A DNA stretch of 48,490 bases, counting the filler, from Sphacelaria rigidula (taxonomy: Eukaryota), in NCBI GenBank assembly GCA_964200075.2. It is 3 parts of 3 records of this genome, joined end to end, with 100 filler letters (N's around TTAATTAATTAA, not from the genome) between each part and the next. Parts side by side here need not be neighbours in the genome. Positions count along the whole stretch, not along the records: positions 16,207 to 32,301 come from CAXNAA020001487.1; 2 more parts are not named here. The stretch is one strand, 5' to 3'. The translations under genes were made by a program, and so were the position numbers. The notes beneath the pieces are model-generated. The model did no database searches and was not told the DNA's origin. It saw only the letters and a list, made by a program, of their open reading frames with translations. Of this stretch, positions 3,601-44,629 are shown one piece after another. The first letter of the stretch is position 1. Every line of letters starts with the position of its first letter.

Positions 3601-3752
3601 GATCCCCGAGCAGCAGGAAGCGTGTGTAGATGCAGAGTTTTGTTGTGAGCATGACCGTCACCAACGAGGGGAATTTTTCACATCGACGGCAGCAGCACAT
3701 GGATCCATCAGGTTAAATCAGGTTGATCTTCACAACAGTTGCAACGGTCTCG

Positions 3753-3830
<78 letters not shown>

Positions 3831-6800
3831 AAGGGGCAGCACGACCAGGCAAAGACGTACACTCAAGGCGTCCCGCAGGCTAACAACAACAAACCCAGCC
3901 TGGCTCACCGTTCAAACGATAGTCCCCCGCTAGGGGCTAGGGCTGCAACTACCTTCCCCTCGCTCCCGGTGGTACTACAGCAAACAAATTACAAAGAGTA
4001 AAACACATCCAATATTTCATGTAAAGCTCTCCCAAACAGCGAACGCGCGCATGCACAGCAAAGCAGGCTAAGCATTTCCCGCAACACAGCCAACAAAGCA
4101 TCGCACCTGCTCTTTGTTGTACCGTAGAAGAACGATACCGTCAAAGCGCCCTTTCTCGTCTTACTCTCCAACTCCCCGCGCCACTGACCTATCAGCGACA
4201 AGGGACACACCACCAACGTGCCGCCCTCCACTATGCCTCCTCTCCGCTCCCCTTCCTCATTCCCCATGCCCGCGCCGCCCGCCTGACACAGCACAACCTC
4301 AACGTCCTCCTCTTTGCCCTGCGTCGCGTGAGCCTTTTTCTTCATTCCCCCCGTCCACAGACGCTTAGCGCCGACAGCGTAAGGATCCGCAAGGAGTGCT
4401 GAGGGATCGGAACCTGCTTTCCCACCACCCCAGCGTCCGCCTTTACTGTTGGCTTGGCTACTGGCGGAAGATTGTCTTACCCCCCGGGCACGTTTTCTGT
4501 TTTTGTTCTTTTTGTTGTTTGCGTTGCCGACCCAGATATCCCGCGCGGTACCCCCTCGCTTGCTTGGTTCGAAGTCTTCGTCCTCCTCCTCATTGCCGGC
4601 GTCATCACTGCTTTGGTCACGTTCCTCCTGCATTACAGAAGGGGGGATGCCACCAGGCAGATGAGGTGGCAGAGAGCCGGACGGGTGGTTTCAAGATCAC
4701 CTCTGTGGGAAAACGATATATTGCTCACCCTGATGTTAGAAGGCGTAATTTTTTTGTGAACGAAGGGGAGCTGGACGTTGCGCTGTCATTCATGCCGATG
4801 GCGAACCTCACCAGCAAACCGATCTCACACGTCAACAGTAGCGAAGAGACTACCGGGTAAGACTACACAGATGGAGGTAACCAAATGGCATATCAGACGG
4901 CATATCGATTCCTTCAGCGGAGTTGGGGTATTGTTGCTTGTGCGCCACCAAGTTTTTGCGTTTTCTCTAACCACTCCAGCGGAGGTGGTGCCTTATTACT
5001 TTCACGCCACAGTTTTTCCCGTTTTGCCCCTGAACTGTGGTCAAGCGGGCGACAACAGTGCGGAAACCACAATGCCGCAGTAATTGGTTACGAGCACACA
5101 AAATACGATCTGGTAAAATCGCATCGACAACACAATCGTACAGCAGCATCGCTTCCGGGAACCTATTTCGCACACTCTCTCCAGCGTTGACGTACGGGAA
5201 AAGTAGTGATTCTCACTACCCCCCCCGAGAAGAAACGCACCTCACTTCCCAAGGACTCGGGCGTGTAATCGCTCTCGCTGGTTTCACTGGTGTCATCGGC
5301 CTCTTCTTGGTCTCCATCACCGTCGACACGACCATCACCGTCGACACGACCCGTGCCGTTGGCATTGGCACCCGTACTCTGTGCGTCGTGGGGACATGGC
5401 TCCCGAGTGCCCCTCGCGGCGGCCGCTTCCGATCGCGTCCGTCTTCGCTTCGCGGGTACCGCTTCGTTGTTCGATGGAACCGGTTCGCGTGTTGGCGCTC
5501 GTCGTTTTATTTGGCTTCCTCGTTCGCTTGAGCGGCTGGGGGCCTTGCCCTTTGCGCCTGCGGCGGTCAGGCACGGTCTTCCCGGGATTGCGATTTCCTG
5601 CTGCTGCTGTTTGTGGTTCTCCGAAGGATGCGGTGAAGACGCGGGTGAAGGGCAGTCGCCGTTGTCTGCATCGAGCAGGCTGGGATCAGGTATTTTGTCT
5701 CCCTCTTTTTTCATACATCTCTCTGCCGTCGGTTGAACGGTCTCCTCTTGTGTTGTCGATTGAATGAGTACTCCTTCCCCTTCCCCCTCCTGTTGGTGCT
5801 GGTACTCATGCCTTTCTTGTTGCTGCTGCTCCTTATCGGCGAGAATAAGCGACAGCAGCATTACCGTCTGTTCGCAATACGGAGCAAGCACGGCGAACAC
5901 CCCCCGGTCCCGCTCGTGAGATACAATGCAGGACATTCGATGATGTTTCCCGGTGGCGAAGGAGGCTTACAGACAGGAACATTTGACAAGCCAGCCCGTC
6001 GCGCTGCAGGAGGAAGGAGGTGCATCTGCTATACAATCGACTCGCCGAGGCAATCGATAGAGACGAAAACAATCGACTGCGGGACAGTTTCCGCCAACGC
6101 TGACGTAGAATCCAGTGAGAGCCGCCAAACAACAATTAATACGGGTGAACGAGGCGCGGACCAAGCACCTCCCAAGCAACTAAAGCAGCGATTGCATCGG
6201 TATCGGATACAACCCTACTTCACGAGCGATCGAAATCTGCCTCACACTCTCCAGGTTCCTAGGTCCTCCAAATCATACCCTCACCTTGCCCATTCCCATC
6301 TCGTCCGCGAGAATACCCCCCCGACACCCGAGAGAGGCCGGTGGAAACTCTTGCTGAAACTGCCTTGAGTACACGTTCACAAAGAACGGCGTAGGGCGCA
6401 ACAAGCGCCTCCTTCCAGCAACGTCGCCTCCAGGCCTCTGCTCATCGGAAGCGGCCAAAAACAGCGAGGGCGCGGGCGGCGCTGCCTTTTCCGACAGCGG
6501 CCGGGTCATGCAAGCTGCCGCCCGTCGCTCCCAGAGGGGGTGAATAACGGCTTTGTCGCTTCCGCCGCTATCTCCCTGAGCGGAGTTCCAGGACGTCACG
6601 TGCACCACACCATCCTTGACACTCACCGCCTCTTTGGTTTCGACATCTTCTGTACCGGTTGACCCGTGACCAGAGTCAGAAGACCCCCCTTGCATGACCC
6701 CGTTCTTATGGTCGGGTAACAAGGACAACCCGGTACAGTCTTCCTCGGTGACGTAGCGCCGACGCTCCCTCTGTATCATCCACGCGAGAGCCTGTCTCTG

Positions 6801-9800
6801 ATATCGCCGGAGATTGAGGCCTTCCACGAACAACCGCGGGTCAGGGCACTCGGGCATGCTGCACATTTGCGCTTCGTCATCGTACAGCTGTTTCACGTCC
6901 TCGTCCCTCACTTCCTTCTCTCCTTCGTCGGCATCTGGGTCCACCTCCACCTCTGCCTCCACCTCCGCCGAAGCACCCAACAAGCTGGCACCATCAACGT
7001 TTCTTCCCGGGGCACCCGGCGCAGCGAGTTTCTTCGAAGTCTGTCCGGCCTCAGCGCTACCCTTAGTCATGTTTTTCTCGGCTTCCGCCTCGCTCGGGCT
7101 TTTGGTTTGGCCTTGGCTAGGAATTTGCTGCGTCGAGGATCTCTGATGTTTTTGTTCAATGTGGCCTGAGCGAAAGCAAAAGGCATGAACGGTTGCGGCG
7201 GGGCAATACGTCAAGGCTAGGCGAGAAGCCTCGGCTATTAGTGGAGTGAATAGACAACGAATAATCCTTGTGACCACGGCTGGGTCCATCAGACATCGGT
7301 TGATGTGCGACAATCAATCGAATCAATCAGCGCGACAGTCAGTATTCCACTTTGTACGTTTAATGTGGATGTGGAGATGTTTTTGCCTTGTGTGCCCACA
7401 TGCTCTCTCCACAGCTTGACCACCGCGCAGCGGACTAAATGCATCTCGTGTGTTTTACCACGCCACGTTGCCGACAAAGATAACGCACACCTGTGTGGAC
7501 GAATTGCAACAGGCTGTAGGCGCTTTCGTATAGCTCTTCGTCCTTGACTATGAAATCGGTTCAAGAGATGAGGGTGCAAACGGGCAAGCAGATCGCACGG
7601 CGGCCGACACGGTGAGACGACAGGGGAGATTCAAGATGAGGTTGGCGCTCACGCTCGGCATTCGCACACGGGGTGGGGCAACACAAGCGTTCAGTGCGAG
7701 ACGTCGGCTGTCGTGCAGCCTGGCGCTCACCGAACGGTGCCACTGTTTTTGTCGCCCCATCATAGGCTCACCACAGACTACATTCGACCAGGCGTGGGAA
7801 TACCAGGATCCAGATCATGACAAAATGGTATGGGTCGCAGATCGTGTGTCCAGAATCAAAATGAGAGTCCCCTACCGAATGCACATGCTGGCACGTCATC
7901 TCTACTTCAAGGAAATGGGTGCAGCAGAGACCGACCGCCAAAGCTTCACATCTTTCTCGAATGTCACGCATCAGTCACTTCGCCTCTCACCGGGTTCCAA
8001 GTCAAACAAGCCTTCGTAAATTTCAATCGATAGCAGCAGGGGCACCTCGGCGAAGTGCCCAAGCCCAGGCAGCTCGCACACGGTTTCCGCCTCAGCCCGT
8101 ACCAGGCCCGCGTGCAGCAGTGGTGCGAGGAAGGTGCACACCTAACACACGTACAGAAAGTATATACAGATGGAACCAATGGTCACTTCGCAGCTGACAG
8201 ACGAAGGACGCCGTACGACTTCGTACGTGTGAGGGTTTGCAGCACCGGCATTGTCTTCTCTTCAGCTTGTAGTTCACGTGTTGCTCAGCGGGGGCACTTT
8301 TACCCGACAATGTTTGCCGTGAGCCATCAAGTTTCGAGAACAGCACTCGAGAGCTGTTCGGCTCTTTCTGGAAAACCGCCTTTGTAAACACAGGATGGCA
8401 AGAAATTATCAACGCTTGTTAAAGCTCTTCAACTGAAGTAGTGTGCACCAAAGCGACCTCCGTGCACACCAAAATTCCCTTGCTTATCCGGTTCATACGC
8501 GCCAATCGCTAGACACAGCGGCACTGCTATGCGCACGACACCCACCTCGCGGGGAAGTCTTCCCTCGACGCCACCCAAAGTCCCCCGAAACGAGATTTGA
8601 GACATTGCCTTCGCGGAGGATACCTTCGGACGCCCAAACTGCCTGCCGGTGCTAGACGCCGAGGTTCCCGAGCCCCGTCCACGCTTACTCTGGTTCGCGG
8701 CTGCTGCTGCTTTCCCCTTCTTGGAATTCGCACCGCCTATACCGGCGGACGAGTGCACGATTGAAACAGGTTCCCGGTACGCCATGCTGCCACGGCCAAT
8801 GCTGTGCCTGCCGTATTTTATGCAAGGTAAGGTGTTGCGATGCCAATGGATTCAGCGGCCACGCGAGCGGGGAGATGAGATTGCTGGGCTCATGGGTTTG
8901 CGCCCGCACAGGATGGCTCTGGTTACGAGTTTGTGAGTCTTGGTCGGGCCGTCTGGTGACGCGGAAACGCTCCCAACGCGCCTGCCCTTTGACACAAACA
9001 CGGCTGAGAAAAATGCCGTAATATGGGGCTTGATATCACGAGTATCCTCACCCTGTCACCCATCGCTCGCCCACGAACTTGGGCCATTCTGCGACCTGTT
9101 GTGACTGCTGCAGCTGCCCGCGCTGCGTTTTTGTTGCACCCACCCTGTCCGTTGCGAGGAGACCAGCAACGTCGCGACTTTCTTCGTTTTTCGAAGAACT
9201 TGAGGTGGACATTGTATTATTTCCATATTTTTTTGCGCTTGGCGCAAGGGAGGATGTCGGCGCTGTTGGGGTGGGTTCGTCAGGCGGTGGTGAGGACGGG
9301 GACGGCAGTCCCGGCACATTTGCCTCAAAATAGCTGTGGGAGGACATACAAGTACGTGCGAGAAGAAGGGAAGAAAGGGGACGGGGACGGGGGACGTGAG
9401 GGGGGTTGTTGTGGGAAGCTGAACCAAGTACAAGGTTGTCGGCGACTTTCGCGGCCACGCTCATCGAAGATGCTTGATAAATGCATGAAAGTAAACCGTT
9501 CTTCGTCCAATCCTTAGAACAGGATATAACTGGAGCCACAGCCTGCCGAGTCACGGAGGCCTCCTCTGCTTGTTGCAAATTCACTGAACCGGACCTTCAA
9601 CACACGTAAGGATGCCAATGCTGGTTATACCGCGGGGCACTTCCAAAGTCTCGCTGGTCCAATTATGATGTAAATCGAGAGAAAGGAATGAAATCCGACT
9701 GGATATTTGGTGGAGACGCCGAACCCGAGGTACCTTTTGCGACACTGATACTGAGTAATCACCAACGTATACCCGACATTGCTATTTTGGGGGTGTTCAT

Positions 9801-16106: not shown

Positions 16107-16206
16107 NNNNNNNNNNNNNNNNNNNNNNNNNNNNNNNNNNNNNNNNNNNNTTAATTAATTAANNNNNNNNNNNNNNNNNNNNNNNNNNNNNNNNNNNNNN
16201 NNNNNN
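16107..16206. other. Artificial contig-joining spacer
   Basis: Exactly 100 bp: N44, TTAATTAATTAA (stops in all six frames), N44. Confidence 0.95.
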
Positions 16207-16335
16207 AGCACCGTCCTTACTGGCATATGTGTGTGACAGAGAACAGTAGTAGCGGTGACGGGAACATTGCCCTATTTTTTCAACATGGTTTTCAGCGCAC
16301 AGAGGCATGTCCTGTCCATAAGGAGAGGCAGAGAG
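16207..16335. repeat. Dispersed repeat, direct homolog of about 31880-32020
   Basis: Shared GAGAACAGTAGTAG..CGGTGACGGGAACATTGCCCT...TTTTCAGCGCACAGAGGC..GTCCTGTCCA. Confidence 0.85.
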
Positions 16336-16932
16336 AAATCGACTTCGGGATTTCTGCGCACGCCGATGCTCTGGCATATGATTAATTTGGCACATGCTGG
16401 TAATATCAAGGATGCCAGTTTGTCGAGAGTTTGGTAATCGCCGAGCGGGGACACACAAAGGGCACGGGCGAGGAGCTTCCTCTCTGTCGTTGCTTCTCTC
16501 TCTNNNNNNNNNNGATATCGTCATCGACACGCGTGTACACCGCAGTTCGTTGGGTGCACCTCGCCAGAGTTGCTTAACCCTTGGACCGCGGTGCCCGTAG
16601 TCCATCTGGACCACGCGTGTACTTTTTTCAAGTGAATATTGATGCCGATTCAGCAGGTGACCTGCTCTCGCGGTCTAAAGGTCAACTCTTACTGCGGAGG
16701 TTTGGGAAGGAAGATACTTTCGCTCTGTCTTACTCTTTCGTATCTTCCCTGCAGTAGAGAAATGGGACTTCAACCTCATTTTTTGTTTCAACCCCAAAAA
16801 TTAGGATCGGCTGTTATCCACCCAACTTAAACGACTCGCAAGACCTGAGAGATGACGACTTCCCTGTCCCCCCGCCAGGTATTAATGAACGACGGTAGAG
16901 TTTTTACAGGCGCATACAACATCAATGGGGGT

Positions 16933-17418
16933 TATCATGAAGACGCATATTAGCCTGAATGTCATGCCGCTTCAGACCCGTTGTCGAGTCTGGCTATTTG
17001 CTTTGTTTTGGTAGCCAAGACTACAGGTCTGTTCAGATTTGGTAGGGTACGAATGTGAACCTGTATACTTACAGGGATGATACTGTCTTTGGTCGCTAAC
17101 CACGACCAAAGTTCCCATCATCGAACACTACCAACTGCTCCCCTACTGCTTTCCAGCAATAGAAGCCTAACCATCGGTGAGACGTATTGACTGGTTTGGA
17201 TTGGATTGATTGGTTGGGTACTGGAGTTAGAATCAAGGTAACCAAGAAGGCGTTAAATGAACCACAGCGTGAACTACTCGTCCGATATTCGGACGCTGAG
17301 CTTTTGTGCGGCTTTTACAAGCTATAGCAGCCTGTCGGTTGTTTGCTCGCCTCGTAAGCTTGTGCCCTGGGTTGCAAGCTGCGTCCCTGCAGTATACTAC
17401 CGCTTGCTCTCCATTACA
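16933..17418 (+). repeat. 5' LTR
   Basis: TATCATGAAGACG...CATTACA (TG mutated to TA); followed by TTGGCG, a PBS-like TGG. Confidence 0.93.
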
Positions 17419-18112
17419 TTGGCGTTTGATTAAGGAGTTTCTGCTTTGGCTATTGCGTTTCCTTCTTGATATCGATTGGTATCCCTGCTGCCCAGCTGCG
17501 TAACCCCAGCCTTGTGATCATTTTGCCCCCTTCCGTTTCCTTCGAGACAGCTATAGTCGAATCATCGCTTTTAATAGTCAGTAGCTTCCAACGTTTCTGC
17601 CCCGTGTGTTCTTTAGTAAAAAGTATTCGTGCTTTGCTACTTCCGACTTTCTGTAGCGTTTGATTGCACACCTTGCACTACGTGGGGTTAACGCGCACTG
17701 CTTGCTACTTTCGCCGTGCTGTCAATTTGGACATCGCCTGCACAAGGTTGCACGGCATCAGTTCCGACTGCACGTGGTGAATCTCTTGGTGATTCATTCA
17801 GTCTGGCACGATCAACGCGCCAAGCCATCGTTGGCTCGTGTATTTGGTCTTGTTGCCCCCCTTTCCTTCTTCTATTACAGGTTTGTACAGAACACCAGTG
17901 CACACAGGCGCACTTTTGTTCATAAGCCAGCCGCTGTCCCTGACCTGAGCTCCTACCAAGTCAGCACGCTGCTGCTCTTATTTTTCAGTATCGATTGTAC
18001 GCGACTGTTGTATCTTTCCTTCACGTAATTACTGAACAAGTACAACCCATGCTCATACATTGTGACAAGGGACATCTGTACACGAAATTTGGACCTGCTC
18101 CGGCACTCTGAC

Positions 18113-18232
18113 CTCGTTGCTTGTAGCTACTTTGTTGCTGTTGTAGCTTTAGCTTCGTTGCTTGTAGCTACTTTGTTGTTGTTGTAGCTTTAGCTTCGTT
18201 GCTTGTGGCTACTTCGTTGTTGTTGTTGTTGT
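18113..18232. repeat. About 40-bp tandem repeat (about 2.5 copies) in the retroelement leader
   Basis: Unit TCGTTGCTTGTAGCTACTTTGTTG(CTG)TTGTAGCTTTAGCT, decaying into (GTT)n. Confidence 0.85.
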
Positions 18233-19132
18233 CCTCTTCTGTACTTCGCACAACCGTAAGGCAACGCGGTACATCACCGTGGTAAGTAACAATACACAGC
18301 ACAACGTACTGTGAATTTTTCTACTTTGACTCCCTCTCGAACGAGCAAATATATTATTCCGAGACGGTCTCGTTGCGATAATACTCGTTGAAACATTTCA
18401 AACCTACGTTACGTGCTCATTCAAACAGACAGCACTCGAAATTGGTGCCCCTTGCCTGTGCACTACAATTTTTCGGCACCCGCTCTCAGCGTTGCCCCTG
18501 TTGTGCACCACGTCACCTGTGTTCTACATACATACGTTGCTCTGCTGGGTAACAAGCCTTCGCTCTGCACTACGCAGTCCGATTTCTCGATCTACAACCC
18601 AAGCTTTGTAAAAGCTTTTGTGCTGCCCCACGCTGCGCAATTTTCGTGCGCATCTGAAAAAACAAAAATCTCATCATTTATATACCGCCAGTCGTCCCTC
18701 AGCTTGTGCCGGGATAATACAGTTATAGTCTGCCCGTGACGCTACACCCAAAACACTTGTAAGTTATACGACTCTCACGTGCCAACGCTGCTACAGACAA
18801 TAGGGTCTTCGCTTGTCTTCGACGACATACATCTGCTCTGTGCAGAATCTCGAGCTCCGCTGATAGCTATTACCGCCATAACTTGAATAAAGTTGTATTA
18901 ACCAGACCCGGACATAGTTGTTACATACAGCAATTCGCTTGAATAAATTACTCAACTAAATCAGGTCCCACGGCCACCACAGGCGCTATTAGGCTTCATT
19001 ATCCAGTATTTCCGGATAAAAGCTTTGGCTTTTGCACGTAGCATCTCTTGTTGTCACGCTCCCTTGATAAGAGCCCGCAGACCAGACACACTGCACCTTC
19101 CTTTTTAAGCACAAAGGCTGCGTACGATTATC

Positions 19133-22100
19133 ATGCCGCACAGAACTAACGATGGCTCTTCCCCGCACTTGGGAAACCAACCGCCTCGTCGGACTCGGAG
19201 TCAAACTACTGGCGGTTCGAAATCTTTCAAGATGAGTGGCACATCACCTTCAACTCATCGCCGCACGTATGCGAGCGCTATTCGATCTTCGGGATCTGAA
19301 GGCCAACTTTCGAGCGAAGCTCGTTCTTCAGGGCTTGAAGACAAGACTTTGACACCGAGACCTGTTCTCTCACATTCCGACCCGGACTCAGAGAACATGG
19401 TAGTGCAACCGGCCGAGTCATTTGTTCCTCACGGACATGTCAGTGAGCCCATAACGGTGGATTCCGTTGCACCCCCCTCGCTGCGTTCTGTTCTTCCGAA
19501 TCCCAATGTGGAATCCGAAGTCAGAATTGTGCCCCCGGCTGAGTCGTTGCCCCTGGACCCACGTGTCCAGCTTGGCCCTGTACCGGTTGCTTCAACCGTG
19601 ACACCCCGTGGCTTGACGGCTGACAACTCTCGAGACGATTCTGTCCCAATGGAGTGCATCGCTTCTGGAGCAAGAGACTTTGTCACACGGGCTGCTTCCG
19701 TTACGGACTCCCTTCGCACGACTCTCGATAGTCCCGTGCCCCCTACTGCACAGTCCAATATCGGACCGGCAGTTTCGGTCATGTATACTGCCATGCAAAC
19801 TCTGCATCGCACCTCATCGGCGTCGTCGCCATCGCCAGCGCCAGCTCTCATCGAGTCATTTACGGCATTTTGCCACGCCACGCTCCAAGATCACTCGGCG
19901 TCTGCTCATGTGCAATTCAATGATGATTCTGCACCTGCCACGCCCAAACCCGTACGTCTAGCGTCCCGTTCGGCGACGTCGCGCTCTCCGTTTGTCACTT
20001 ATGACAAATTTAACGGACATGAGTCCAGCCCTTCCTCAACGTCGCAGCAGAGCCTTACTCGCGCTTCTGACCGGCGCCGCACACCGAGACTTGGTGACGA
20101 CCACGTCTCCCGTTCTGGCAGTTCTAAGGGCAACTCCCAGCGAAGCTTGAATTCGTCGCACGTTTCTACACGCCCGAAGAACGTCACTCGTGGTTACACT
20201 TACGACGGTAGTTCACGTCACAGTTCCAACTCATCACGCGCTCCACAGCGCCGGGTGAATGCTAACCGTGAACGTAGTCACGAGGATGCCTTGCGGCACA
20301 GATCAAGATCTTTGCGCGTTACCTCGCGCTCGAAAAACACCGATCATGCACCCTCGCGCATCTCTCATGCCCCGCATCAATCACACAGCCGCCATGTACG
20401 CAATGACAACACTGTACATGCTGGTGATATCCAAAACATATTTTCGGACATGTCACCGGCTCCGGAATCCTCAATTGAAGGATCCGGCTGCACCGTATCG
20501 CAAAACCGACGACCACGCACTAACCGCGAACCACCGTCCCGTTCCAATGCTGCGCTTATTCGTTCTCTTCAACAACGCTTGACAGAACTCGAGCGACAAC
20601 TGTCTACATGGACCCTTTATCATCTGCTGCCGCCGCCGCTACAGTCAGCAAGCCCACTCGCGCTCCCGCAGCTACTGCTACCGCTACTGTGACCTCTGCG
20701 CCTTCAGCCGCCCTTACGATGGCTCATACAACCGCCGCCGCTCCGTCTGCCATCGACACGGACGCCGATAGCGGTTCCACAACTGCCCCTGTGCGCCCGC
20801 CCCCATCCGTGGAGGTCCCCCCTCCGCTCGGCGACGAGCACTGCCCCACCGGCCTGCTCTGACATCTGTTCACCAATCGACCCCGCGTGGAGCAGCAACA
20901 GCTCATTGCCGACTACGCATCCCAGGCGCCTGCATTGGCGGAAACATACTTAGTCAGCAACGTGACGCTAACGCTGCCGCTGCCCGCCTCCTTCTGGAGG
21001 AGCACGCAGAAGTGCTAAAGGACCTCCAGCGGCAGGCCTCCCACGCTCAATCCACGAGCACGGCGGCACAACGAAGACTACAAAAGGGCCGTACTGCGGT
21101 CATGGCGGCCTAAAGACGGATCCGCGAGCTAGAAGATCATGTTCAGCGGACAGCTCAAGCAGCGGACACGTCGGTGGCGCGTCTATCCGACCATCAAGCC
21201 TCTCCGCCTTCCACCAACAACTTGCTCAGGACCCACCTGCCGGCGCCCAACAGATCGACTTACGTTCTTCCACGTAAGTCCGGCCGGACGTCGTCTGCTG
21301 CGGCCGCTGCCGCGCCACGACGCCTCCGACACCGCCACCGCAAGAAGTTAGCTCGGTGCCGAGCACCGTTTTGGCGCAAAATTTGCGACTCGTGTCCCAC
21401 GAACGAGACTGTCTTTCTCGTCCTGTGAACACTTATACTGGTCCTTTTGACCGCCGAGACCACCTCCACTGTTCCCAAAACGCATGGACCTTGATCTCCC
21501 AACGTATGTTCTACACTGTTGGGGTTTACGTCGACCAGAACGGCTTCCTGCCCAAGGAGGGCGTCTCGGTGCTCACCTTGGGCCAACTGGTTCTGCAGGC
21601 GACCGTTGGCAATCACCGTCACCACCAAAATTACGTTGACGCGGCCCTCCAACTTTTTGCGGCGCTTCGCGCCGCCTACAACACTCATCCCGGCGCCACC
21701 CTCGACGAAGACGAAGATGAAGATGGGTGGACTCCCGTAACATCCAATTGCCGGGGCCAGAAGAAGAATCACAGGCGCGACGACGATGATAATGATGGAA
21801 GGAATTCACGCCGCCGTCATGGCGGTGGGGGATCCTCTTCGGGCGGTTCCGGACCGAACCGCCCGCCTCGCAAACCGCACCGAAAAAACCACGGAGGTAA
21901 TTCTTCCAGTTCCTCGGCACCCGGATGGAGCAAGTCTAACATAGATCTTCCCGCCTCGGGCTCGGCGACCCCCAGGCAAGTGATTCCTAAGTTGGCTGAT
22001 GTTTCGGCCCGCCTTTTAGGTTCGTCCGATACGGATACACCTGACCTTCCTTTGTCTTCTACTGCAGCCCGCGCACTAGCAACCGCTGCGGCTGACAAAG

Positions 22101-23530
22101 AACGTTCCAAAGCTAGCAAAAAAGCAGCTTCCGATAGAGCCGAGTCTACCCGAGAAGCTGCAATACAGAGACAGTATATTCAGATGGATGTGAAAAAACT
22201 CTGGCACATCAAAACCGTGCCTGCCGCGGATAACGAAGATTCGGGCCAGTATACTTCTGCCCTCATCATGTCCATCCGCTGCAATGTTTGTAACATCTTT
22301 CACTTGGCGGATGTGACTGGCACACAACGTTTCGAAGATTCTGACTGGGTAGAGGGCTGGCAGACTCCCTAGCACAAAGCAATGCATCGATCGATCAGCC
22401 GCCGCTCTCCCGACCTCGCTGCTTCCATAACGCAGATTCACGACGGCTTCCTCGCCGAGATGGATCCGGACCGTGTCAAGGGGAAGATAGGTCCAGTATC
22501 ACTCTCTGATTTGGAGAGGCGTCTGAGCGGCTACTTCGATAAAAGTGACCAGGCCAGTGCCATTCAGAGGCTGAGTTGTTTCGTTTTCGCCTCTGATGTC
22601 CCCTTCGCGGATTATCTCCGCGAACTCAAGCTTTTGGTTTCGGGTACGACGGGTGTCGGACGTCAGAATGGACCGAGCGACGCAATGTGTCCGACTTGTG
22701 TTCGCAATAGCGTTGCTCAACAGCATCCGGCTCTGATGCCGTCGTTGTTTTCGGGTGTCTTGGCGCATCGCGAGGTACCTTACGCCTCCATTGATACTAT
22801 GTGGCCTGCTTTTGTACACCAAGAGGGTAATCTAACGCTTGCCATACGTGGCAAACCTTCAACGTCTGTGCGTTCACAACCTACGGTTGTGTCCTCCGCT
22901 CATACCCAAGGGGCTCGTGGCAGGAATTCGAGCTCGTCTCGCGCTTCATGGACCCCGACTCAGTCGCCGGTTCAGTTATGCATGTTCAGGGTACCAGAGA
23001 TGCATTTAGCGCGAGTTTTTATGGTTCGCCGTTTTCCGAGGAAACTTGGGATAATGTTTATTTGACTTCAACAACAGCATTCATAACCGATGATCCCCAC
23101 TTGTGGAACCCACTTCTTTCGTCTTCCGCTAGACGCAATGCCTTCAGCAGTCATGCCAACAGTTGCATCAACTGTCTTGTTCAAGGCCACAGCATGCGCG
23201 ACTGTGACAATCCATGCATCAATGCCTTTGATCTCATGAACCCTGAATTGCAGGACAATGAACCCGCGTGGCGCCGATGGCAAAAACGCATGCGCGACTA
23301 TCGTCCACCAACTCGAAATTAACGCGACAATTCGAACCAACGTGGCAACAAAAGCTCTATTCGCGATCGCCGACACAACAACAATCACGGAAGCCCTCGC
23401 CAGAACGATCAAAATTCTCGCGACAACAAACGTTTCGCTGACAGACACCAGCGGACGGGACCGACACAAAGTTCTAATCCTAATACCAGAAACCCTAGTA
23501 CCTTTACTACGGATCACTTAGATCCATGAC
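19133..23530 (+). pseudogene. gag: Disrupted gag (ORF1) of the LTR element
   Basis: Chain of + ORFs (19133, 20608, 21356, 22382, 22948) linked by frameshifts and stops; capsid-like FADYLRELKLLV; CX2CX4HX4C knuckle CINCLVQGHSMRDC at 23164-23205. Confidence 0.75.
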
Positions 23531-26500
23531 GTGCCGACGCCGGCGTTCTTCGGCCTTCCACGCCGTCGATAGCACGAGCGAAGACTTTCTCAACACAGCC
23601 CGCGGAGTCCGTGTCTAAAATTGCTCCCTCGACTCCCCCGGCACTATCCAGGAGCGTAACTGACGGCCGTTCATATCGACCCCCATCTCGACCCTCCACA
23701 CACCGCGTAACAGTTGTGTCACCCCGCGACTCAGACCTACACCCGGCACTGAACTTGGTCCTTCAGTACCGAGTATAAGTCTGAGGTGTGGGAAGACCAA
23801 CCACCAGTCCCTGAGGCGAAGGCTTCCCTCAGCGACCGCACGCACAGGTAGCAGCAAGCCTTTTTCAGCTGACCCAAGTGTTGCTGATTTGAACCTGACC
23901 ACATCGGATCATGTAACTCCCACTCAGTTGGACTGAGCTCCTTCCCCGCGATTTTCAACACGCACGGACCTACCTTCGGCCGGTTTTACTAACAACCGCC
24001 CCAACATATCTTCGGCTATGCCCCAACAGCCAAGCTTGCCTACAGAAAGCAGCCCACAAGTTTCGCCCCGTCATGTCCCGATGCTGACCTCATCCACACA
24101 ACTGGACGCAGTTGTTGTTTTCATCCCCAAATGTTTTGGAAGTTCCCTGACCTTTGTCACGGCGAAAGAGAAAGCCCCGTAAGCATGCCCCTAAGGACGC
24201 GCGCGCATCATTACGTACACCTCTTTCGAACGGAAATCCTCGACCTCAATATCTCCAAAATGCGACGACTTTGAGCTCGACGGCTCTATCAAGTATCCCG
24301 GAAGGAACAAAATTACATGATTCTAACGGCACTACTTCTTCAATCGACGACTCCAGCCCCACACACTCTGGATCCCCCTTAGACGGTGATCCCTGTCAAC
24401 CAAAGACGATCATTTACGAAATCGCCAATGACCGTGCCAAACCTGGAAATAATATACCATCCACTTCCTTCTCTGGTGAGACATCTGACCCACCGGCGGA
24501 TCACCCACCGTGCGTTTTTACTGTCAGCCATGCTGATCCTGACCAGTTTACCTTGGCGGAACATGGTCCGGATCTTGTCGGCGGTAAAATGTCTGTAGAT
24601 CCGGCCACTTTCACTACTCGCGTTGCGATACATTCCGGTCCAAACGCGATCACGCCTACAAAATGCGTATCCTTGTTGGACAGCGGCAGCCCGCAAACAT
24701 TTATTCGAAAATCAACATGGAAACACATGAAGCAGACTGGTGCTGCTACTGCAGCTTGCGAAACCACCACCAAACCTCGCGTGTGGGGCGGTTTCGGTGA
24801 TGCTGCCGCACCACTGACGACACGTAAATCCGTATAACTCAGTGTTCAATTATTTCACAAAACCATTCGATCTACCAGCCTTGCAGTCTGGGCATACGTT
24901 GTCCCCGACAACACAATGCATCACGCCATATTATTGCGCAGAGATAGTTATATATATGCGGTTTAATAAACGCACCAACTGCACGCTTCCACCACTAACG
25001 CCACATTCCCCGCCGTGTGGAGAATTCAACCTCGAGCACTTCGGTACTCTCCACGGCGCCCTGGCTTATCAGAAGAATCCCCAAGCAACCGGAGCTGCTC
25101 ACCACCTACGATATAACGGTAGCGTGGGTATTACACTCTCCGACGACCCCCAACTTCTTGAAGTTGCACTAGTTCGCCGAAATGGCATGCCAGCACTCAC
25201 GGGGCATTATCTTGCTGAAATGATACCCCGTATTGGCGCTCCAGCTGACACAGAACATTTTGTGTCGGGGGGAAGACAACTCCTCCCTCTTATGGGCCAT
25301 GCTAACATGCAACCCGGCGATGTTTTAGGGATCGCCGCTGCTTCCCTGATGCACATCTCACTTGAGACGTGCGTCACATAGCCTGCCGCGCCAAGCGCCA
25401 CATCTCCGGCGGAGTCAGTCCATTGTGTCGATGAACCCTATTTCGACCTCGCCTCTGCGACTCCACCCCAGGTCCACACCGTGGATCCTGCCCAGTCAAA
25501 TTCCGATCCTCCTGCTGAAGTGCTTCGACGTTTATCACCAGATTCTCGGAATAGATTTTTGCACGTGTGGAACCAACTGCCGCCACACATGCGCGACATC
25601 AACTTTGATCTTCATGGACCCGGCTGGGAACTGGCAGTCATCGAAGAACTCAGTGATGTCCTGCTACAGTACCAGGACCGATTTTCCCGATCCAAGACGG
25701 ATCTTGGGCATTGCAAAACACTTCCCTTTGAGGTTATCCTCTAACCCGGTGTCTCGCCGATTTCTTCTCGGCCATACCGTACCAACCCAATCCTTACCAA
25801 GAAAGTTTACGCCATATTGGATGCGTATTTGGGAGCGGGACTAATACAACATTCCTCCTCTTCTTGGGCCTCGCCACTTGTGGTCGTTCCCAAAAAGGAT
25901 GGAAACACACGCATCACCGTGAATTATCAACGGTTGAACCGCGTCACTGCAGTCGGTAAACTTCCAATTCTCCGCATTGATGAAGTCTTCGACTCCTTGG
26001 ACGAAGGAAAAATATTCAGCACCTTCTACCTCGCTTCTGGATTTTTCAGAATGCCATACACCCTGACACAGTCCCACTGACGGCTTTTTGTACCTCGTCC
26101 GGACTTTATGAGTGGCTTCGAATGCCACAAGGCGCCGCCACTGCCCCGGGATGCTTTCAACGTTTAATTCAACGCGTCACTGAGGGCCTCGAGCACATCA
26201 TCATGTACTTGGATAACGCTATCGCTTTCGATGCGTCATTTATTGCACATATACGCACTCTACGAGAATTTCTCTCTCGCCTACGCACGCAAGATTTGAA
26301 ACTGTCTCCATCCAAAGCTTTCCTTGGCGCGACTGACTTGGTTTTCTTGGGGCATTCGATTTCGCCAGCAGGCCTCCATCCGGATACAAAAAAAGTCAAG
26401 GCGATGACTGGTTTGCCGATGCCAACTAACATTTCTCAGCTTCGCTCATTGTTGGGCGGGCTATCCTACTACCGCAAATTTTCGCCGAATTTATCTAGAC

Positions 26501-27482
26501 GGAGTCGCCCCACTTACTGAGCTACTCAAGAAAGGAGCCGTGTTTTCTTTCACCACCGAAATGGAGAATATCACCCGACAACTACTCAAAACGCTTACCG
26601 AAAAGCCCGTACTCTGCTTTCCTGATTGAGAGGCAATACAAGATAGCTCCCGCCTTTTGCAACTCCACATTGACGCCAGCACACATTGATTTGGAGGAAT
26701 TTTGAATCAACCTCAGGTTAATGGCTCTGTCCGACCCATCCTTTATATCAGCCGCGCTACCCTGCCCAACGAGGCCAATTGGAGCCCGCTAGAACTGGAA
26801 GGCGGAGTAATCACTTGGGTCATTAAGCGCCTTCGACAATATCTGTTTCACGTGCCCTTCGAGATCTATACGGATCACGGAGCACTTACTTGAACAACTC
26901 GCCAAGGTTGGTAAACACAACCCTCGTGTACAACGATGGTTGGAGTTTCTAACAGCATACCTGTATACCATTAAGCACCGCCCAGGCAAAACCAACGGGA
27001 ACGCGGATCTTTTGCCGCCTACGGCCGCAGATTCCAGCCCGGCTTGCCGCTTAAGGGAACCCGATGAACCCGGAATATACACGATTAGACTTTTTTCAAC
27101 GCCCGTTTACGCCCTCGACCTCCAGTGCCCGGAAACCGGTATGAATATGGGAGGACCTCGCCCTTTATCATATGACGCCGTCTTGGGTGGGTTAAAGCCC
27201 ACTACCTCCGATTTTGTCGATTTTCGTACTTTCGGTGCTCGCGCGAAACTCTTCGCGGAGACACCTCCAGTCACCCACCTTATCTCCGACAACACGCGCT
27301 CCCGATCTGCCGCCCGCACCGCACCGAGTGCCCCGCCGTCACCAACAACGCCTGCAACATCTATGAGCCACCCAGCACAAGTTCCAAGGTCCAACACGCA
27401 AAGCTCCGCGAAAACTTCTGCACCGTGCGCCACGCGCCGCGAACAATCTTCGCCGCGCACTGATACAACCCCGCCGCCAATA

Positions 27483-27730
27483 GAGTCACCCTACGGTAGG
27501 GGGGGGTATTTGATTGCACGAAAAAAGAGGCTCCAAAGTGTGTCAGACGACCTGCCACTCTCGTGGTGCGCTTACATTCAGTTCAAAACGGTTTCAATCG
27601 GTATGAACGAGCGTTATATATCTATAACAAGCTCGCTCGAGCAACCGTTGCTCCTTTCAAGGACGATTTGGCTTGGAATTTTGTGCAAGAAGTGGCCCAA
27701 AATACCCCCCCCCCTATCGTAGGATGACTC
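27483..27730. mobile_element. 248-bp MITE in the RH-IN linker
   Basis: TIR GAGTCA(C/T)CCTACG(G/A)TAG-polyG-TATTT; flanks AATA and GATA (4-bp TSD, one mismatch). Confidence 0.85.
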
Positions 27731-28403
27731 GATAACGGCGCCGCAAACATCTCCTACCCCCGACCACGGAACTGACGACACGCCTCCTGCGCCCGGGACA
27801 GATATTGACGTCGGCATTTCTGCCCCGTCGCCTACTCCCCCGCCGCCTGCCCTACCATGTTTGGTCGGCTCGCCAGCGGAAGGTCAACTACGCGAGTTTC
27901 TCGCTAGCTACTCCCACCGCGATTGGGCTCGCGAACAAAACGCAGAACCGCTATGTCGCGCAGCGATCTAGTTCTTACAACTTGACTGTCCAGTTCCTTT
28001 TCCGTCCACACTTCTGGCCCTGGTTGGGACATTGCCACCACCAGTTATTTCTGACGTATACGAGCTCGTGCGTAAAGGCACCCTTTTTACTACGGATGAA
28101 GGCGTGCAACTCCTCGTACGTCGGCCCACGCCCTTGACAGGCGCAATTGCCGCCTCAACTATGGGACGCACCGCACGACTACTCAATGACGAACCAACGC
28201 GCATATATGTGCCATTATAATGCGCCCCTGGGTCATGAAAGGCTGCCACACAGACTTGTCATGCCACCTTGGCGTCACCCGCACCCTCGCGCTCTTGGAA
28301 CGCTTTTACTGGTGCGTTGGCATGGAAATTTCAACCCGCTTCTGGATTCGGCGATGCTTTAAATGCCAAGCCCGAAAAACTTCACGACAGATAGTACGCT
28401 GGC

Positions 28404-28651
28404 GACACTTTCTACGATAGCCTCCCCCCAAAACCAGCCAAAAGTGTCACGAAAAAGATGAGCATACAGCGCCTGATGCTTGGGTTCAGGCTGCATGAAG
28501 CGCCTCATATTGGCAATACTGGCTAGAACGAATCCAGTCGTGAGAATTCCCAGCTGCTCGTTGTGCTCGGCTTTTCCCATTTCGATTCACGTGAAGATTT
28601 TGCCTCCCAAAACCATGCACTTTCTGGGGGGGGGCTATCGTAGAAAGTGTC
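28404..28651. mobile_element. 248-bp MITE interrupting integrase
   Basis: TIR GACACTTTCTACGATAGCC; perfect 4-bp TSD TGGC; removal restores the frame VRWPVISMGLPDEPG. Confidence 0.92.
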
Positions 28652-30612
28652 TGGCCCGTCATCTCAATGGGACTCCCCGACGAGCCCGGCCACCTTGTGT
28701 CCTTTGACCACTTTGGCCCTCTACCGACCACAGGTCGCGGCAACACCTACATCTTATTCTTCACTGACCACTTCAGCCGCCACGCGTCCATGTACGCAGT
28801 AACCGCCGCAGATTTCACTGCCGCCGGAACGGCCGACATACTGGTCCACGATTGCATGAAGCACTACGGTTGCCTAAAGTGCCTACTTTCAGACAATGGT
28901 CAGCAATTTTGCTCAGACCTCTCTGATGAGCTTTACAAACTTCTGGGCATCCGCAAAATTGCCACGAGCGCTTACCAACCGAACGGCAACGGTGGTACCG
29001 AAAGAGTTAACCACACAATGGCCCAGATGCTCTCTATGGTTGTCAATGACCGCCAAAATGACTGGGACCTACACGTCTCGCACATCATGCTATCCTTAAC
29101 AACTCGGTCAATGCCGCCACAGGAATTTCTCCAAACAAACTCCATATTGGACGTTACCCTCGGCTGCCTATCACCGTGTTTGAGCGAAACACGTTTGGCG
29201 GCCACCAAGGATTGGATCAAGATCAAAAATCCTACAACGAGCTAGCGCATGCACGACAAGGCAAAGCGTTCACCCTCATGCGCGAACAACACGCTATCAA
29301 CGCCTCGCGCCTAGAGAGATCTAACACTGCGCTCTACAACCTCATGCACAAACGCCCTAACTGGAAAGTTGATGATTGGGTCTGGATCTACGACAGTTTG
29401 TCGACCATCCGCCAAGGCACCAGCAAGGCAGCCAACGAAACAATTTTGAAGACAACATTGTCCCTCAATTGGACAGGACCATTCAAGACCTTGACAACCG
29501 GACCATCGTCATCATCACCGGACGAAAAACTCGTTGGTGACAAACTGCTCTATCTCGACTTGCTTCGCGACTTCCAGGGCAAAGACACCAAGCCCCGCGT
29601 CTCCGTGCACAGATGCAAACCCTGCACGAACCCGCATGATAAAAGTGACATGCCCAAGTACCTGCCTGCCAGACTCACACAGTATGTTCTCAACAGCTAC
29701 TCGACCAAGTCCCCGCCCTACCACGTTACAACCGACGACGTGACGGAACAGCCGGTTCGATTGACTGTGTCCTCCATTTCCGGCCACCAAATAACCCGTG
29801 GTCGAGGAGGCAAGATCGCTGTCACGTTTAAGACACAACGGCACGGTCTTCGGAGAGCGTCTTGGGAACGCGAATCCGACCTGCAATTGCACCGCCGTGC
29901 AATCCTCCTTTACTGGACGCAATCCCAACATCAGCATCTTGCTCACAACAAGAAATATCTCAACATGCGCCGTGGTGCAGCAGCCCGCGAACTTCATCGC
30001 TTTGTCGCCGATGGTTACGAACTTGTACAATCCAAGACTTGTAAGAAGAAGTTCTTCGCGAACCAGCGACTCCTGCCCAAGGGCAGCTACCTTTGGTTCA
30101 AAGGCAGCGACAACCTCTGGTGGTTGGGTCAGACCCACTCCGTAACCTAGTTTCGGCCAACATATACATCGTGCGCTTCATCGATGACCCCGGGCCCATA
30201 CAGCTCAAGCTTCGGCCAGCTCTATACACCACCAGCCCATCTGCATCACGCGGATCCTGGTGTAGGTCAGAGCTCTGCTCCCTGTTGTACCTCCCTGCTT
30301 TCCCCCCTTAACGTTTGCTAGGACGCCGGAGCAATTTGTGCTTCTTCGTTGATCGCTAGCACGCCGAAGCACTTTGTGCTTCCGCGTTGCGGAGCAGTTT
30401 TTTCTGCTCCTCGAAGCAGTCTATGCTTCCCTTCTTTTGAGGTGTGGGAGTGGGTACACGGTTGTTGGTACGGGAATGTTAGGCACGGGAGTGTTCCTTT
30501 CGGTATGCTTTATTACCCGCTCATGACTTTACGAGTGAAGAAAAACCTTAGTTTTTGCTGCTTTGAGGATAAATCCTCGCAGCTGTAATAAAGGTTCGTC
30601 TGGGTGGGTTTG

Positions 30613-31097
30613 TGTCATGAAGACGCATATTAGTCTGATTGTCATGCCGCTTTAGACCCGTTGTCGAGTCTGGCTTTTTGCTTTGTTTCGGTAGCCAAGA
30701 CTACAGATCTGTTCAGAGTTGGTCGGGTACGAATGTGAACCTGTATACTTACAGGGATGATACTGACTTTGGTCGCTAACCACGACCAAAGCTCCCATCA
30801 TCGTACACTACCAACTGCTCCCCTACTGCTTTCCAGCAAAATAAGTCTAATCATCGGTGAGACGTATTGACTGGTTTGGATTAGATTGATTGATTGGGTA
30901 CTGGAGTTAGAATCAAGGTAACCAGGAAGAAGTGAAGAACCTATTGCGTGAGAACTCGTATGATGCTTGGATGCTGAGCAGGTCACACGATATCTACAAG
31001 TTGTAGCAGCCTGACGGGTCTACACTTGCCTGCTAAGCTTGTGCCTTGAGTTGCAAGCTGTGTCCTCGCATTATGCCACCGTTTGCTCTTCATTACA
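30613..31097 (+). repeat. 3' LTR
   Basis: TGTCATGAAGACG...CATTACA; preceded by G-rich TGGGTGGG (weak PPT). Confidence 0.93.
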
Positions 31098-31879
31098 GGG
31101 TACGGATAGTTTCTTCTCCATGAAAATACGCGTTTTCTAACCTGCAAAGCGTTTCATACGCACTGTTTTCTTATACGAAGGGTAACTTGTCGATTTTTGT
31201 TCCGTTCTCCACGGACTGCCTGATGCCAATCCCAGAAACGGTTGGTATTGCTGTTCGACGTTATCTTCGCATGTTTAACCGGACCCGAAGCGGCCACCTT
31301 CTCTCAGGTCTTGAGAGTCGTTTAAATTGGGTGGATGTAGTTGAGAAAAATCAAACTGTTTAGCTTTCATACCTGTTGCGAACTTCGGTCGGGAGTAAGT
31401 ACGGTAGAGCAACGAAAGCTAGCTATAATCGTGGTTGCCTGCAGTACTACCGACAGCGTTGCGTGAAAGCCACAAGAGTTTTGCTGTCGGCGATTGGTGG
31501 CGTGGGTCTCAAATGCAATGACAAGTGATTGATCGTAGAGCACTCTCGTCCCAGCTTGTCATGGATGACCTCCTCACATCGGAATAGTTATGGAAAGCTA
31601 CTCGTACTGTACCGAGGTGTTCACGCGACCAGCGTGTGCTCCAGATTGCAGCATGGACGGACTCCCATGCGCCACGCTAGCAACAGTTAGGTCACCACCA
31701 TAGGTATCATTTTTCACTCCGCATGCCAAGAAGGTCTCTACAAGTGTTTGATCTCTCATACACCCCCCTCAACTGGCGCGTGGCACGCTGTTGTGGCCGG
31801 GCACCCAGAAGGTCAGATGTGGATGAAATCAACGACGAATAACACCTTCCAAGTTCAAACCGAATCTATTTGTTATTGC

Positions 31880-32020
31880 CGCACCACCGCCCTTGCTGGC
31901 ATGTGTGTGACGGAGAACAGTAGTAGTAGCGGTGACGGGAACATTGCCCTGTTTTTCAACGACATGTTTTTCAGCGCACAGAGGCGCGTCCTGTCCAAAA
32001 GGAGTGAACAGAGGATTCTG
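31880..32020. repeat. Dispersed repeat, direct homolog of 16207-16335
   Basis: Shared sequence described under the 16207-16335 feature. Confidence 0.85.
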
Positions 32021-32301: not shown

Positions 32302-32401
32302 NNNNNNNNNNNNNNNNNNNNNNNNNNNNNNNNNNNNNNNNNNNNTTAATTAATTAANNNNNNNNNNNNNNNNNNNNNNNNNNNNNNNNNNNNNNNNNNN
32401 N
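32302..32401. other. Artificial contig-joining spacer
   Basis: Exactly 100 bp: N44, TTAATTAATTAA, N44. Confidence 0.95.
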
Positions 32402-43357: not shown

Positions 43358-44629
43358 AGACAATAGACAAAGAAGGGTACACCCTGGTGCTTTTGGGACA
43401 AAAGAGGGTAACGCATTTTTCGCCTCGGGACGCGGCGCCGTACGCGGACTGAACACCTCGAAAACGCGTTCCAGCGCCTCAGTCCCACACCCAAGGTGTC
43501 TGGGCAACATACGCGACCATTTCTTTTCACTTTCACAAGTGTTACTAAGTTGAACTTCGGATCAGAAAATGAGGGCCTGTGAGAGTAGCCTTTTTTTAAA
43601 ATATACCAGGAGGGTACACCCTGCCCTCTGCAAAAAATCCATCCCTTACCTCCTTTCCTGAAAAGTGATAATGGCCTTCAACTCATTAAGAAATATCTAT
43701 ATATATATTTGGGTCTAATCAATATATTTATATATATATTTTAATTGTGCCCTATTCATTGTCCATACCAAATTTTAGAGTCCCGACTCTGATTATTGAC
43801 GTGAGAATGAACCTGCAAACTACAAATCCGCTTTTAGGTTAGCCCAACTCGTAGTGCTGCATGGTCTGAAATGAACGTGGATGCAACAGCGAGGATCGGA
43901 GGAGGACCTTCGATTGTCCAGTCTGCGTCATCGGATTCAGGCGTTCTTCCTCCAATCCGGAATCCGGTCGGTGCCCATCTATCTTTGTTTCTGAGCCGCA
44001 AATTGCAGATCCCGCAACGGTCTGATGTTGTCACCATGTGACGCCATTCGGGCGTCTGTGTCGGCAAGATGTTCACACATGTTCGTTGAATCTTTGTGGG
44101 CTCCGACACACAAGTGCCCTGTATGCATCGTTGGATCTTTCGGGTCCTGGGGCCACCTAGCAGGGGGCTACACTTTCTTGGTCGTTGGGTTTCGGCCTTT
44201 TTGGTGGAGTGTAATTCAACCGAAAATGACTACCGTGTGGTTGTGACTGCTCGGCGTTTCTTCTGCTGAGCCGGCGGTACGCTCACCACTCCGCAAAAGA
44301 GGATCAACAGGTGCACGAAAAAGGGTAAGGAATGGATTTTAGCAGAGGGCAGGGTGTACCCTCCTGGTGTATTTACAAAAAAGGCTACTCTCACAGGCCC
44401 TCATTTTCTGATCCGAAGTTCAACTTAGTAACACTTGTGAAAATGAAAAGAAATGGTCGCGTATGTTGCCCAGACACCTTGGGTGTGGGACTGAGGCGCT
44501 GGAACGCGTTTTCGAGGTGTTCAGTCAGCGTACGGCGCCGCGTCCCGAGGCGAAAAATGCGTTACCCTCTTTTGTCCCAAAACTTTTGTCCCAAAAGCAC
44601 CAGGGTGTACCCTTCTTTGTCTGTTGCCC
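43358..44629. mobile_element. Non-autonomous Mutator-like element (MULE)
   Basis: Near-identical TIRs of about 295-305 bp (43358-43650, 44324-44629); 9-bp TSD TTTCTCTGG / TTCCTCTGG; no transposase inside. Confidence 0.85.

Follow-up and report, generated by a model that had tools for sequence, protein, structure and literature searches.

The stretch of DNA analysed here (the window) comprises 48,490 nucleotides, filler included, from Sphacelaria rigidula (GCA_964200075.2), and contains a fossil: an old, dead, complete LTR (long terminal repeat) retrotransposon of Ty3/Gypsy type, which is a member of a lineage whose named members are brown-algal. In relatives of this element the integrase is followed by a C-terminal tail that, as modelled, runs in the order Cys motif, chromodomain fold (module 1), two-helix linker, five-stranded Tudor-like barrel (module 2) and short conserved tail. 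We consider it probable that in this lineage the tail tethers the integrase to chromatin. The two-barrel tail would anchor the integrase complex at some feature of the chromatin, and this tethering would bias where new copies insert; both steps are what we infer from the observed sequence of the tail, its single frame in relatives, its conservation and its predicted folds.

In the window, positions 29755-30263 encode two modules joined by a helical linker, the first chromodomain-like and the second Tudor-like, read in two frames. The first opens at 29062, passes an SWERE motif (29860-29874), reaches LWWLGQ and ends at a TAG codon at 30148-30150, and this frame (29062-30150) holds the stretch KGSYLWFKGSDNLWWLGQ ~60 residues downstream of SWERE. 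The second frame resumes as NIYIVRFIDDPGPIQLKL and runs on to GSWC at 30252-30263, with exactly one frame change (-1/+2), located between 30130 and 30164, splitting the Tudor-like module. Profiles of module 1, linker and module 2 were cut from a 38-sequence alignment of relatives (A1), and the tail features are as follows.

29614-29640, + strand: CKPCxNPHD, a conserved Cys motif that follows the integrase and precedes module 1 (alignment A1)
29755-29922, + strand: module 1, chromodomain fold, with Trp replaced by Arg (family profile, 78.8 bits)
29929-30054, + strand: helical linker (family profile, 28.0 bits)
30070-30138, + strand: first part of module 2, strands 1-2 (profile positions 3-25 of 73, 22.9 bits, frame of 29062)
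30130-30164, + strand: frame-change interval with the TAG, in a variable-length loop between profile positions 25 and 31
30156-30263, + strand: second part of module 2, strands 3-5, to the GSWC end (profile positions 31-66 of 73, 56.5 bits, frame of 30045)

The Arg codon of module 1 (CGG, 29839-29841) occupies a position that is Trp in 172/189 relatives. The same replacement, at the position of W102 in the relative P0006, was seen in nine of these 189 proteins too, as would fit a TGG codon that decays repeatedly in dead copies.

Searching 1.84 billion representative sequences using HMMER, the 362-residue open reading frame (ORF) found 988 proteins with an expectation value (E) of ≤0.001, of which 73 had E ≤1e-30 and the best 4.4e-89, and a word-indexed search with P0006 returned 380 proteins at E ≤1e-5, with 41 among longer proteins. 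Both modules lie in one uninterrupted frame in three relatives (P0002, P0006 and P0034). All named relatives are from brown algae, namely Ectocarpus sp. CCAP 1310/34, Undaria and Nemacystus decipiens, and an oomycete origin, suggested by a first language-model cluster that was commonest in Oomycota, was dropped on this ground. The Undaria relatives are gene models fused to host genes; two of these (P0301 and P0308) finish with the tail of the retrotransposon, preceded in one case by a protein kinase domain, and they are probably annotation chimeras, although co-option could also account for them. When the three profiles were run over 309 relatives, the proteins divided as follows.

137/309 proteins: both modules matched, with a median spacing of 51 residues
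92/309 proteins: module 1 matched, with the protein ending within 110 residues
8/309 proteins: module 1 matched and at least 110 residues following, without a module 2 match
2/309 proteins: module 2 only
70/309 proteins: neither module

Mean column conservation, taken as the share of the commonest residue across the 38 sequences, was 0.70 in module 1 and 0.62 in module 2. In addition, a diverged sub-lineage with 33-34% identity also has a barrel-like second part (P0029). When longer proteins were searched using only module 2, eight of 34 candidates matched, all from the same family, with no host-gene or other transposon context, which is weak evidence.

We modelled the tail with AlphaFold2 using alignment A1. 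Residues 75-255 of P0006 had predicted local distance difference test scores (pLDDT) of 85-97 and formed three strands followed by one helix, then a pair of linker helices and lastly five strands, so the part from chromodomain to barrel is modelled as one confident unit, in which the linker helices (model residues 139-156 and 171-177) have a pLDDT of 85-95. Module 1 comprises strands 78-88, 94-102 and 109-112 followed by helix 113-128, which is the sheet plus C-terminal helix of a chromodomain. Comparison using VIA-align, on the best 1000 chains of a Foldseek search, superposed it on chromodomains with Z 6.4-7.1 (6.0-7.2 when the unbiased search below is included) and a root-mean-square deviation (rmsd) of 1.2-1.7 Å, including CDY1 (Z 7.1, 1.4 Å, 54 aligned residues), Chp1 (Z 7.0, 1.6 Å), HP1 (1kna; Z 6.6, 1.2 Å, 50/52 residues) and MPP8, with nearly the whole of the targets covered. 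In an unbiased VIA search of 48,161 representative chains, 26 of the best 50 rows fell on module 1 and all 26 contained a chromo or chromoshadow domain, and 19 of the other 24 rows, on module 2, were from the Royal family.

A model of the linker and module 2 had a mean pLDDT of 84.1 and a predicted template modelling score of 0.75, with strands at 56-60, 66-74, 80-85, 91-95 and 112-117 forming a five-stranded barrel. In Foldseek, Tudor domains of PHF1 or PHF19 took all of the ten top ranks as well as the five rows listed after them (probability 1.00, TMt 0.58-0.65, rmsd 1.8-2.3 Å, 27-32% identity over 43-46 columns, where TMt is the TM-score normalised by target length). Likewise, 36 of the best 50 VIA rows were Tudor, Agenet, PWWP, SAWADEE, chromo-barrel or Spindlin domains, with the remainder being three TraI, three Pelota, two KOW and two UBE2O domains, Hpy99I, R67 DHFR, a BAH domain and one unclassified chain; against 6wau Z was 5.6 with 56/57 residues aligned, and all listed Z values were 4.7-6.6. 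Run against PDB sequences, the family profile reached the chromodomains of Swi6 (E 0.021) and MPP8 (E 0.045), with a chromodomain range of 0.021-0.051. It also reached the Tudor domain of PHF19 (E 0.047-0.052). Language-model scores for module 2 were 0.78-0.85, all below the 0.9 line. At the level of prediction, therefore, the two folds are supported as real. Foldseek searches with the whole model placed retroviral integrases at the top ranks, and these were discarded as meaningless global alignments (TM-score normalised by query length 0.12-0.14, rmsd 16-22 Å). The Cys motif upstream of module 1 (P0006 residues 23-45) has nearly invariant C28, K29, C31, D36 and D39 in A1 and a pLDDT of <50, and might serve as a short segment that binds metal or as a disordered one used in recognition.

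These results agree with much of a sequence-only reading made earlier of this stretch, which had proposed a chromodomain pattern after the integrase, an Arg (CGG) in place of the expected Trp and a second, Tudor-like module read across one frameshift. The family profile matches module 1 and both frames of module 2, and the model of the relatives superposes on chromodomains. The further proposal of two Royal-family folds in the lineage holds in intact relatives, where both modules are read through in one frame and where AlphaFold2 and Foldseek give a C-terminal SH3-like barrel of Tudor type with PHF1 and PHF19 closest.

Several points weigh against a chromatin-tethering tail with these two folds. 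The copy in the window is itself unable to function, with frame changes and stops in pol. No Chromo or Tudor family of Pfam was found on the two window tail ORFs at E ≤1, and the case therefore rests on the relatives; searching PDB sequences with the tail using phmmer gave a sole match to a TIR adapter at chance level (E 0.46). Among the relatives, eight fragments gave one Chromo match with Pfam, which scored 17.1 bits where the cut-off is 25.1, and one Agenet match (E 0.02) on a different fragment, no reader family was found at E ≤0.1 on eight full-length pol proteins, and a precomputed PF00385 assignment is present on one of 120 listed relatives. As neither module rises above the Pfam cut-offs, standard annotation misses this architecture. 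The structural scores are also modest: all VIA Z values are below 8, where similarity may stem from nothing more than a common arrangement, the module 2 model has its top Z with a TraI domain (6.6), with Pelota, KOW and SH3-like barrels also listed, and the PHF1 and PHF19 matches have a Foldseek E of ~0.02, with no match reaching 0.001. The co-occurrence count is biased, because both modules were present in the queries by which the relatives had been collected. The final point concerns the aromatic cages.

Module 1 was compared with the HP1 chromodomain by placing Y24 from the Swi6 profile alignment and the start of the 1kna superposition, and we take the cage Tyr to lie directly before the aligned stretch of module 1. 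The canonical cage is formed by Y24, W45 and Y48 in HP1 numbering (PMC3350952; statements from the literature here and below cover the available parts of the sources cited). Module 1 keeps one of these three positions, since the W45 position is the Trp of 172/189 relatives that is Arg in the window, the Y24 position is L/I/V/M in 175/189 and F in 5/189, and the Y48 position is L/I in 173/189. Retrotransposon group II and 'shadow' chromodomains also keep W45 only, and retrotransposon chromodomains without Y24 and Y48 have no identified ligand (PMC3350952). For module 2 we used a gapless profile alignment to 6wau, with PHF19 numbers, except Y80, derived from chain offsets. The PHF1 cage consists of W41, Y47, F65 and F71, with Y80 being the fourth residue in PHF19, and MTF2 with three of the four cage residues binds weakly (PMC7492083). 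Here the Y56 position is W in 107/113 and the F74 position F in 102/113, and the W50 and Y80 positions are A/S/G in 104/113 and P in 109/113, respectively, so that two of four are kept. Further conserved aromatics are present (W190, Y191, W198 and W244), the first three of which adjoin the cage strand.

Ectocarpus lacks H3K9me1/2/3 and H3K27me3, and its repeats carry H3K79me2 and H4K20me3 (PMC12477816). Given the incomplete cages, and the lack of H3K9 and H3K27 methylation in the one model host studied, a canonical H3K9me3 reader is unlikely; the ligand is probably not classical H3K9me3, and a different mark, DNA or some protein of chromatin could take its place. Although the folds are supported, both cages are incomplete, which leaves dual histone-mark reading unsupported, and the dual targeting system of the sequence-only reading was not borne out.

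A related proposal, doubtful but worth stating, is that this lineage, widespread in brown algae, carries a bivalent reader made of a chromodomain joined to a Tudor barrel of Polycomb-like type, with remodelled pockets suited to chromatin devoid of H3K9 and H3K27 methylation, which would read repeat marks of the H3K79me2 or H4K20me3 type and steer integration there. If true, no earlier targeting module with two readers would be known from a transposon, and the tail would offer a probe for the heterochromatin of brown algae. We judge it improbable that both modules are canonical methyl-lysine readers which jointly read two histone marks (bivalent targeting). The two predicted folds are classical methyl-lysine reader folds, conservation extends to the central Trp in the cage of the chromodomain and to two of the four positions in that of the Tudor domain, and W190, Y191 and W198 beside the cage strand could replace the missing aromatics; however, one of three and two of four cage positions kept, the lack of an identified ligand for retrotransposon chromodomains without Y24 and Y48 (PMC3350952), the weak binding of MTF2 with its three-of-four cage (PMC7492083) and the absence of H3K9 and H3K27 methylation from Ectocarpus (PMC12477816) all stand against such a reader.

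The tail might also be no targeting device at all, with its barrels binding nucleic acid, or multimerising the integrase as a chromoshadow domain would, and so aiding assembly of the integration complex. Module 1 superposes on chromoshadow domains about as well as on chromodomains (3q6s, Z 6.8; 9cea, Z 6.7) and its Trp-only cage is the pattern of 'shadow' chromodomains (PMC3350952), but its identity to chromoshadow domains is 5-9% compared with 20-28% to chromodomains, and the profile-to-sequence matches are to chromodomains and not to shadow domains. For nucleic acid binding, the neighbours of module 2 include a PWWP domain bound to single-stranded DNA, KOW domains and TraI domains, and DNA binding is dominant for the PHF20L1 Tudor domain according to a 2026 abstract; the integrase, however, already has its own SH3-like C-terminal region upstream of the tail. 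On balance we hold this alternative to be unlikely. Finally, a chance resemblance in a decayed frame, with no second module, could draw on the silence of Pfam on the window tail and on the different frames of the two module 2 halves, but it is extremely improbable and we regard it as refuted by the 988 homologues, the single-frame relatives, the profile scores of both halves (22.9 and 56.5 bits), their contiguity in 137 two-module proteins and the confident predicted fold.

Tethering of the integrase by the two-barrel tail is plausible by analogy with known systems, and is weakened by the incomplete cages. The chromodomain of MAGGY targets integration via H3K9me (PMC3350952), and reader domains (Chromo and PHD) have been captured by transposons (preprint 10.1101/2021.11.30.470311). 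Fusions of integrase and reader are the clearest natural cases of transposons choosing their landing sites. Since 92% of reader genes have just one type of reader (preprint 10.1101/2021.11.30.470311), it is unusual for an integrase to bear two different Royal-family folds in a conserved tandem. The ligand of this tail could reveal how brown algae recognise heterochromatin-like regions, and it would test whether cage-poor chromodomains, such as those of plant group II, have a real ligand.

The complete LTR element spans 14,165 bp (16933-31097, with the LTR ends read base by base) and has the features below.

16929-16932, no strand: target-site duplication GGGT on the 5' side, with the same four bases after the 3' LTR
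16933-17418, + strand: 5' LTR of 486 bp, with TA start and CA end (blastn and end reading)
23164-23205, + strand: CCHC zinc knuckle, C-x2-C-x4-H-x4-C (pattern search, in a gag-like ORF at 22831-23319)
24193-30263, + strand: decayed pol with protease, reverse transcriptase (RT), ribonuclease H (RNase H), spacer, integrase and tail (tblastn of full-length relatives)
28208-28402, + strand: integrase zinc-binding H2C2 region, 63% identical to residues 1199-1263 of the relative P0275
28403-28651, + strand: 249-bp insertion with four stops, absent from relatives, whose segments abut at P0275 residue 1263
28652-29086, + strand: integrase catalytic core, 58% identical to P0275 residues 1263-1407 (Pfam rve, E 1.1e-07)
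29371-29484, + strand: integrase C-terminal SH3-like region with a WTGPF motif (motif location)
30613-31097, + strand: 3' LTR of 485 bp, TG...CA (blastn and end reading)
31098-31101, no strand: target-site duplication GGGT on the 3' side (base-level reading)

Comparing the window with itself using blastn showed the LTR pair to be 86.2% identical over 486 bp (16935-17418 and 30615-31097). Direct LTRs, TG...CA in the 3' copy and a 4-bp duplication are as expected for Ty3/Gypsy, with the 5' copy beginning TA. The Pfam order is likewise that of Gypsy, with RVT_1 at 25984-26520, RT_RNaseH at 26690-26893 and rve at 28595-29245, and P0275 residues 1199-1263 are Integrase_H2C2 by Pfam. Segments of pol aligned colinearly with full-length relatives at 33-65% identity per segment by tblastn, with seven frame changes and eight in-frame stops within the matched segments, and homology to relatives stops at 30263. 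We take the SH3-like region at 29371-29484 to be the module named GPY/F; language-model neighbours of the whole ORF carry PF24626 (SH3_Tf2-1), which is a lead only for this region.

Full-length relatives have the order (NADAR)-protease-RT-RNase H-spacer-integrase-tail, and Pfam detects the NADAR domain in P0302 (Ectocarpus), P0318, P0337 and P0325 at E 1.9e-40 to 2.4e-48. No NADAR was detectable in the window copy by tblastn (best E 0.72), which may reflect loss by decay or membership of a NADAR-less sub-lineage such as that of P0275. The spacer between RNase H and the integrase zinc-binding domain is 350-400 residues long in relatives (P0275 residues 826-1198) and without a Pfam family; in the window (26889-27900) it is Pro/Ser/Thr-rich and alignable only in part. 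No Pfam match was found for the gag-like ORF, nor any meaningful Pfam family for the upstream ORFs of the element. A 527-residue open frame (19109-20689, + strand) lies within the element, 5' of the gag-like region, and gave neither a Pfam family at E ≤0.1 nor a match among the pol proteins collected; this long lineage (14 kb) could have it as an additional ORF, or the frame could have arisen by chance in GC-rich sequence.

Near both ends of the element there is a 120-bp direct repeat (16209-16325 and 31885-32004, 86% identical), so the element lies inside a repeated region. Runs of N (44 N, 12 bases, 44 N) at 16107-16206 and 32302-32401 are the filler between the joined parts of the window. 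Elsewhere in the window, four open frames at 2281-7313 (- strand) hold pieces of an SNF2-related helicase in descending profile order, as if a host gene with several exons encoded a chromatin remodeller there, and an inverted repeat of ~300 bp with 92% identity (43361-43650 and 44324-44626, ~700 bp apart) may represent the ends of a small DNA transposon.

The closest known systems include the NADAR lineage of Gypsy elements in Ectocarpus (Gypsy-12_Ec32 and relatives); P0302, P0318, P0337 and P0325 begin with an N-terminal NADAR domain, followed by RT, RNase H and integrase, and finish with the two-module tail. Four Gypsy lineages are described in Ectocarpus, three of which, including the NADAR lineage, have 'putative C-terminal chromodomains', and the NADAR elements are 12-14.5 kb long with a 4-bp duplication (PMC12477816), similar to the 14,165 bp and 4-bp duplication of the window element. 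However, the window element has no detectable NADAR and its LTRs are 485-486 bp compared with the 266-298 bp listed, and the available part of the source names the chromodomain alone, with no second Tudor-like barrel (PMC12477816). Gypsy-10_Ec32, likewise a Gypsy element of a stramenopile, has a Tudor domain at the end of its pol and was termed the first transposable element with one, and it has a homologue in Tribonema; compared by description only, it differs in being a separate lineage with Tudor only, 11,528 bp in length and with 636-bp LTRs (PMC12477816). The Tudor domain of Gypsy-10_Ec32 may nonetheless be homologous to module 2, Gypsy-10_Ec32 may belong to the family of the window element and have a chromodomain that went unnoticed, or the tandem may be drawn in Figure 1C or the supplement of PMC12477816.

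Chromoviruses (MAGGY and Tf1 in group I, and plant group II) likewise fuse a chromodomain to the integrase C-terminus, and the plant group II chromodomains resemble module 1 in lacking the Y24 and Y48 equivalents, but group II was known only from plants (PMC3350952) and chromoviruses carry a single reader domain, unlike the window lineage. The sequence-only reading had set the lineage beside described chromovirus clades; the chromodomain-bearing Gypsy lineages of Ectocarpus are described as related neither to chromoviruses nor to Chronos (PMC12477816), and the window lineage is probably not a chromovirus. Chronos, a Gypsy element of oomycetes and hence of stramenopiles, likewise carries a chromodomain downstream of its integrase, gained separately from that of chromoviruses, but is defined by a second, archaeal-type RNase H (PMC5348765). 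Using Pfam, we found no second RNase H on 14 relatives (eight at E ≤0.1 and six at E ≤0.01) or in the window spacer ORF (26811-27722) at E ≤1, and the window element is therefore not Chronos.

In HIV-1, the PWWP domain of LEDGF/p75, a Royal-family barrel, links the integrase to marked chromatin, but LEDGF/p75 is a host reader bound in trans, whereas here the reader-like folds lie within the integrase polypeptide. The Tudor domains of the Polycomb-like proteins PHF1, PHF19 and MTF2 are nearest to module 2 among solved structures in both fold and sequence, but these are host proteins, in which an aromatic cage of four residues reads H3K36me3 (PMC7492083); two of the four positions are aromatic in module 2. 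Full-text literature searches combining Tudor or PWWP with integrase or retrotransposon, screened by title and abstract, gave no report of a chromodomain and Tudor tandem on an integrase. To this extent the architecture is, as had been suggested, not one described before, although its parts are in print, since earlier work on Ectocarpus covers both the fusion of integrase and chromodomain in the NADAR lineage and a Gypsy element with a Tudor domain (PMC12477816). What appears to be new here is the conserved tandem of chromodomain and Tudor-like barrel, in a lineage that had been partly described before.

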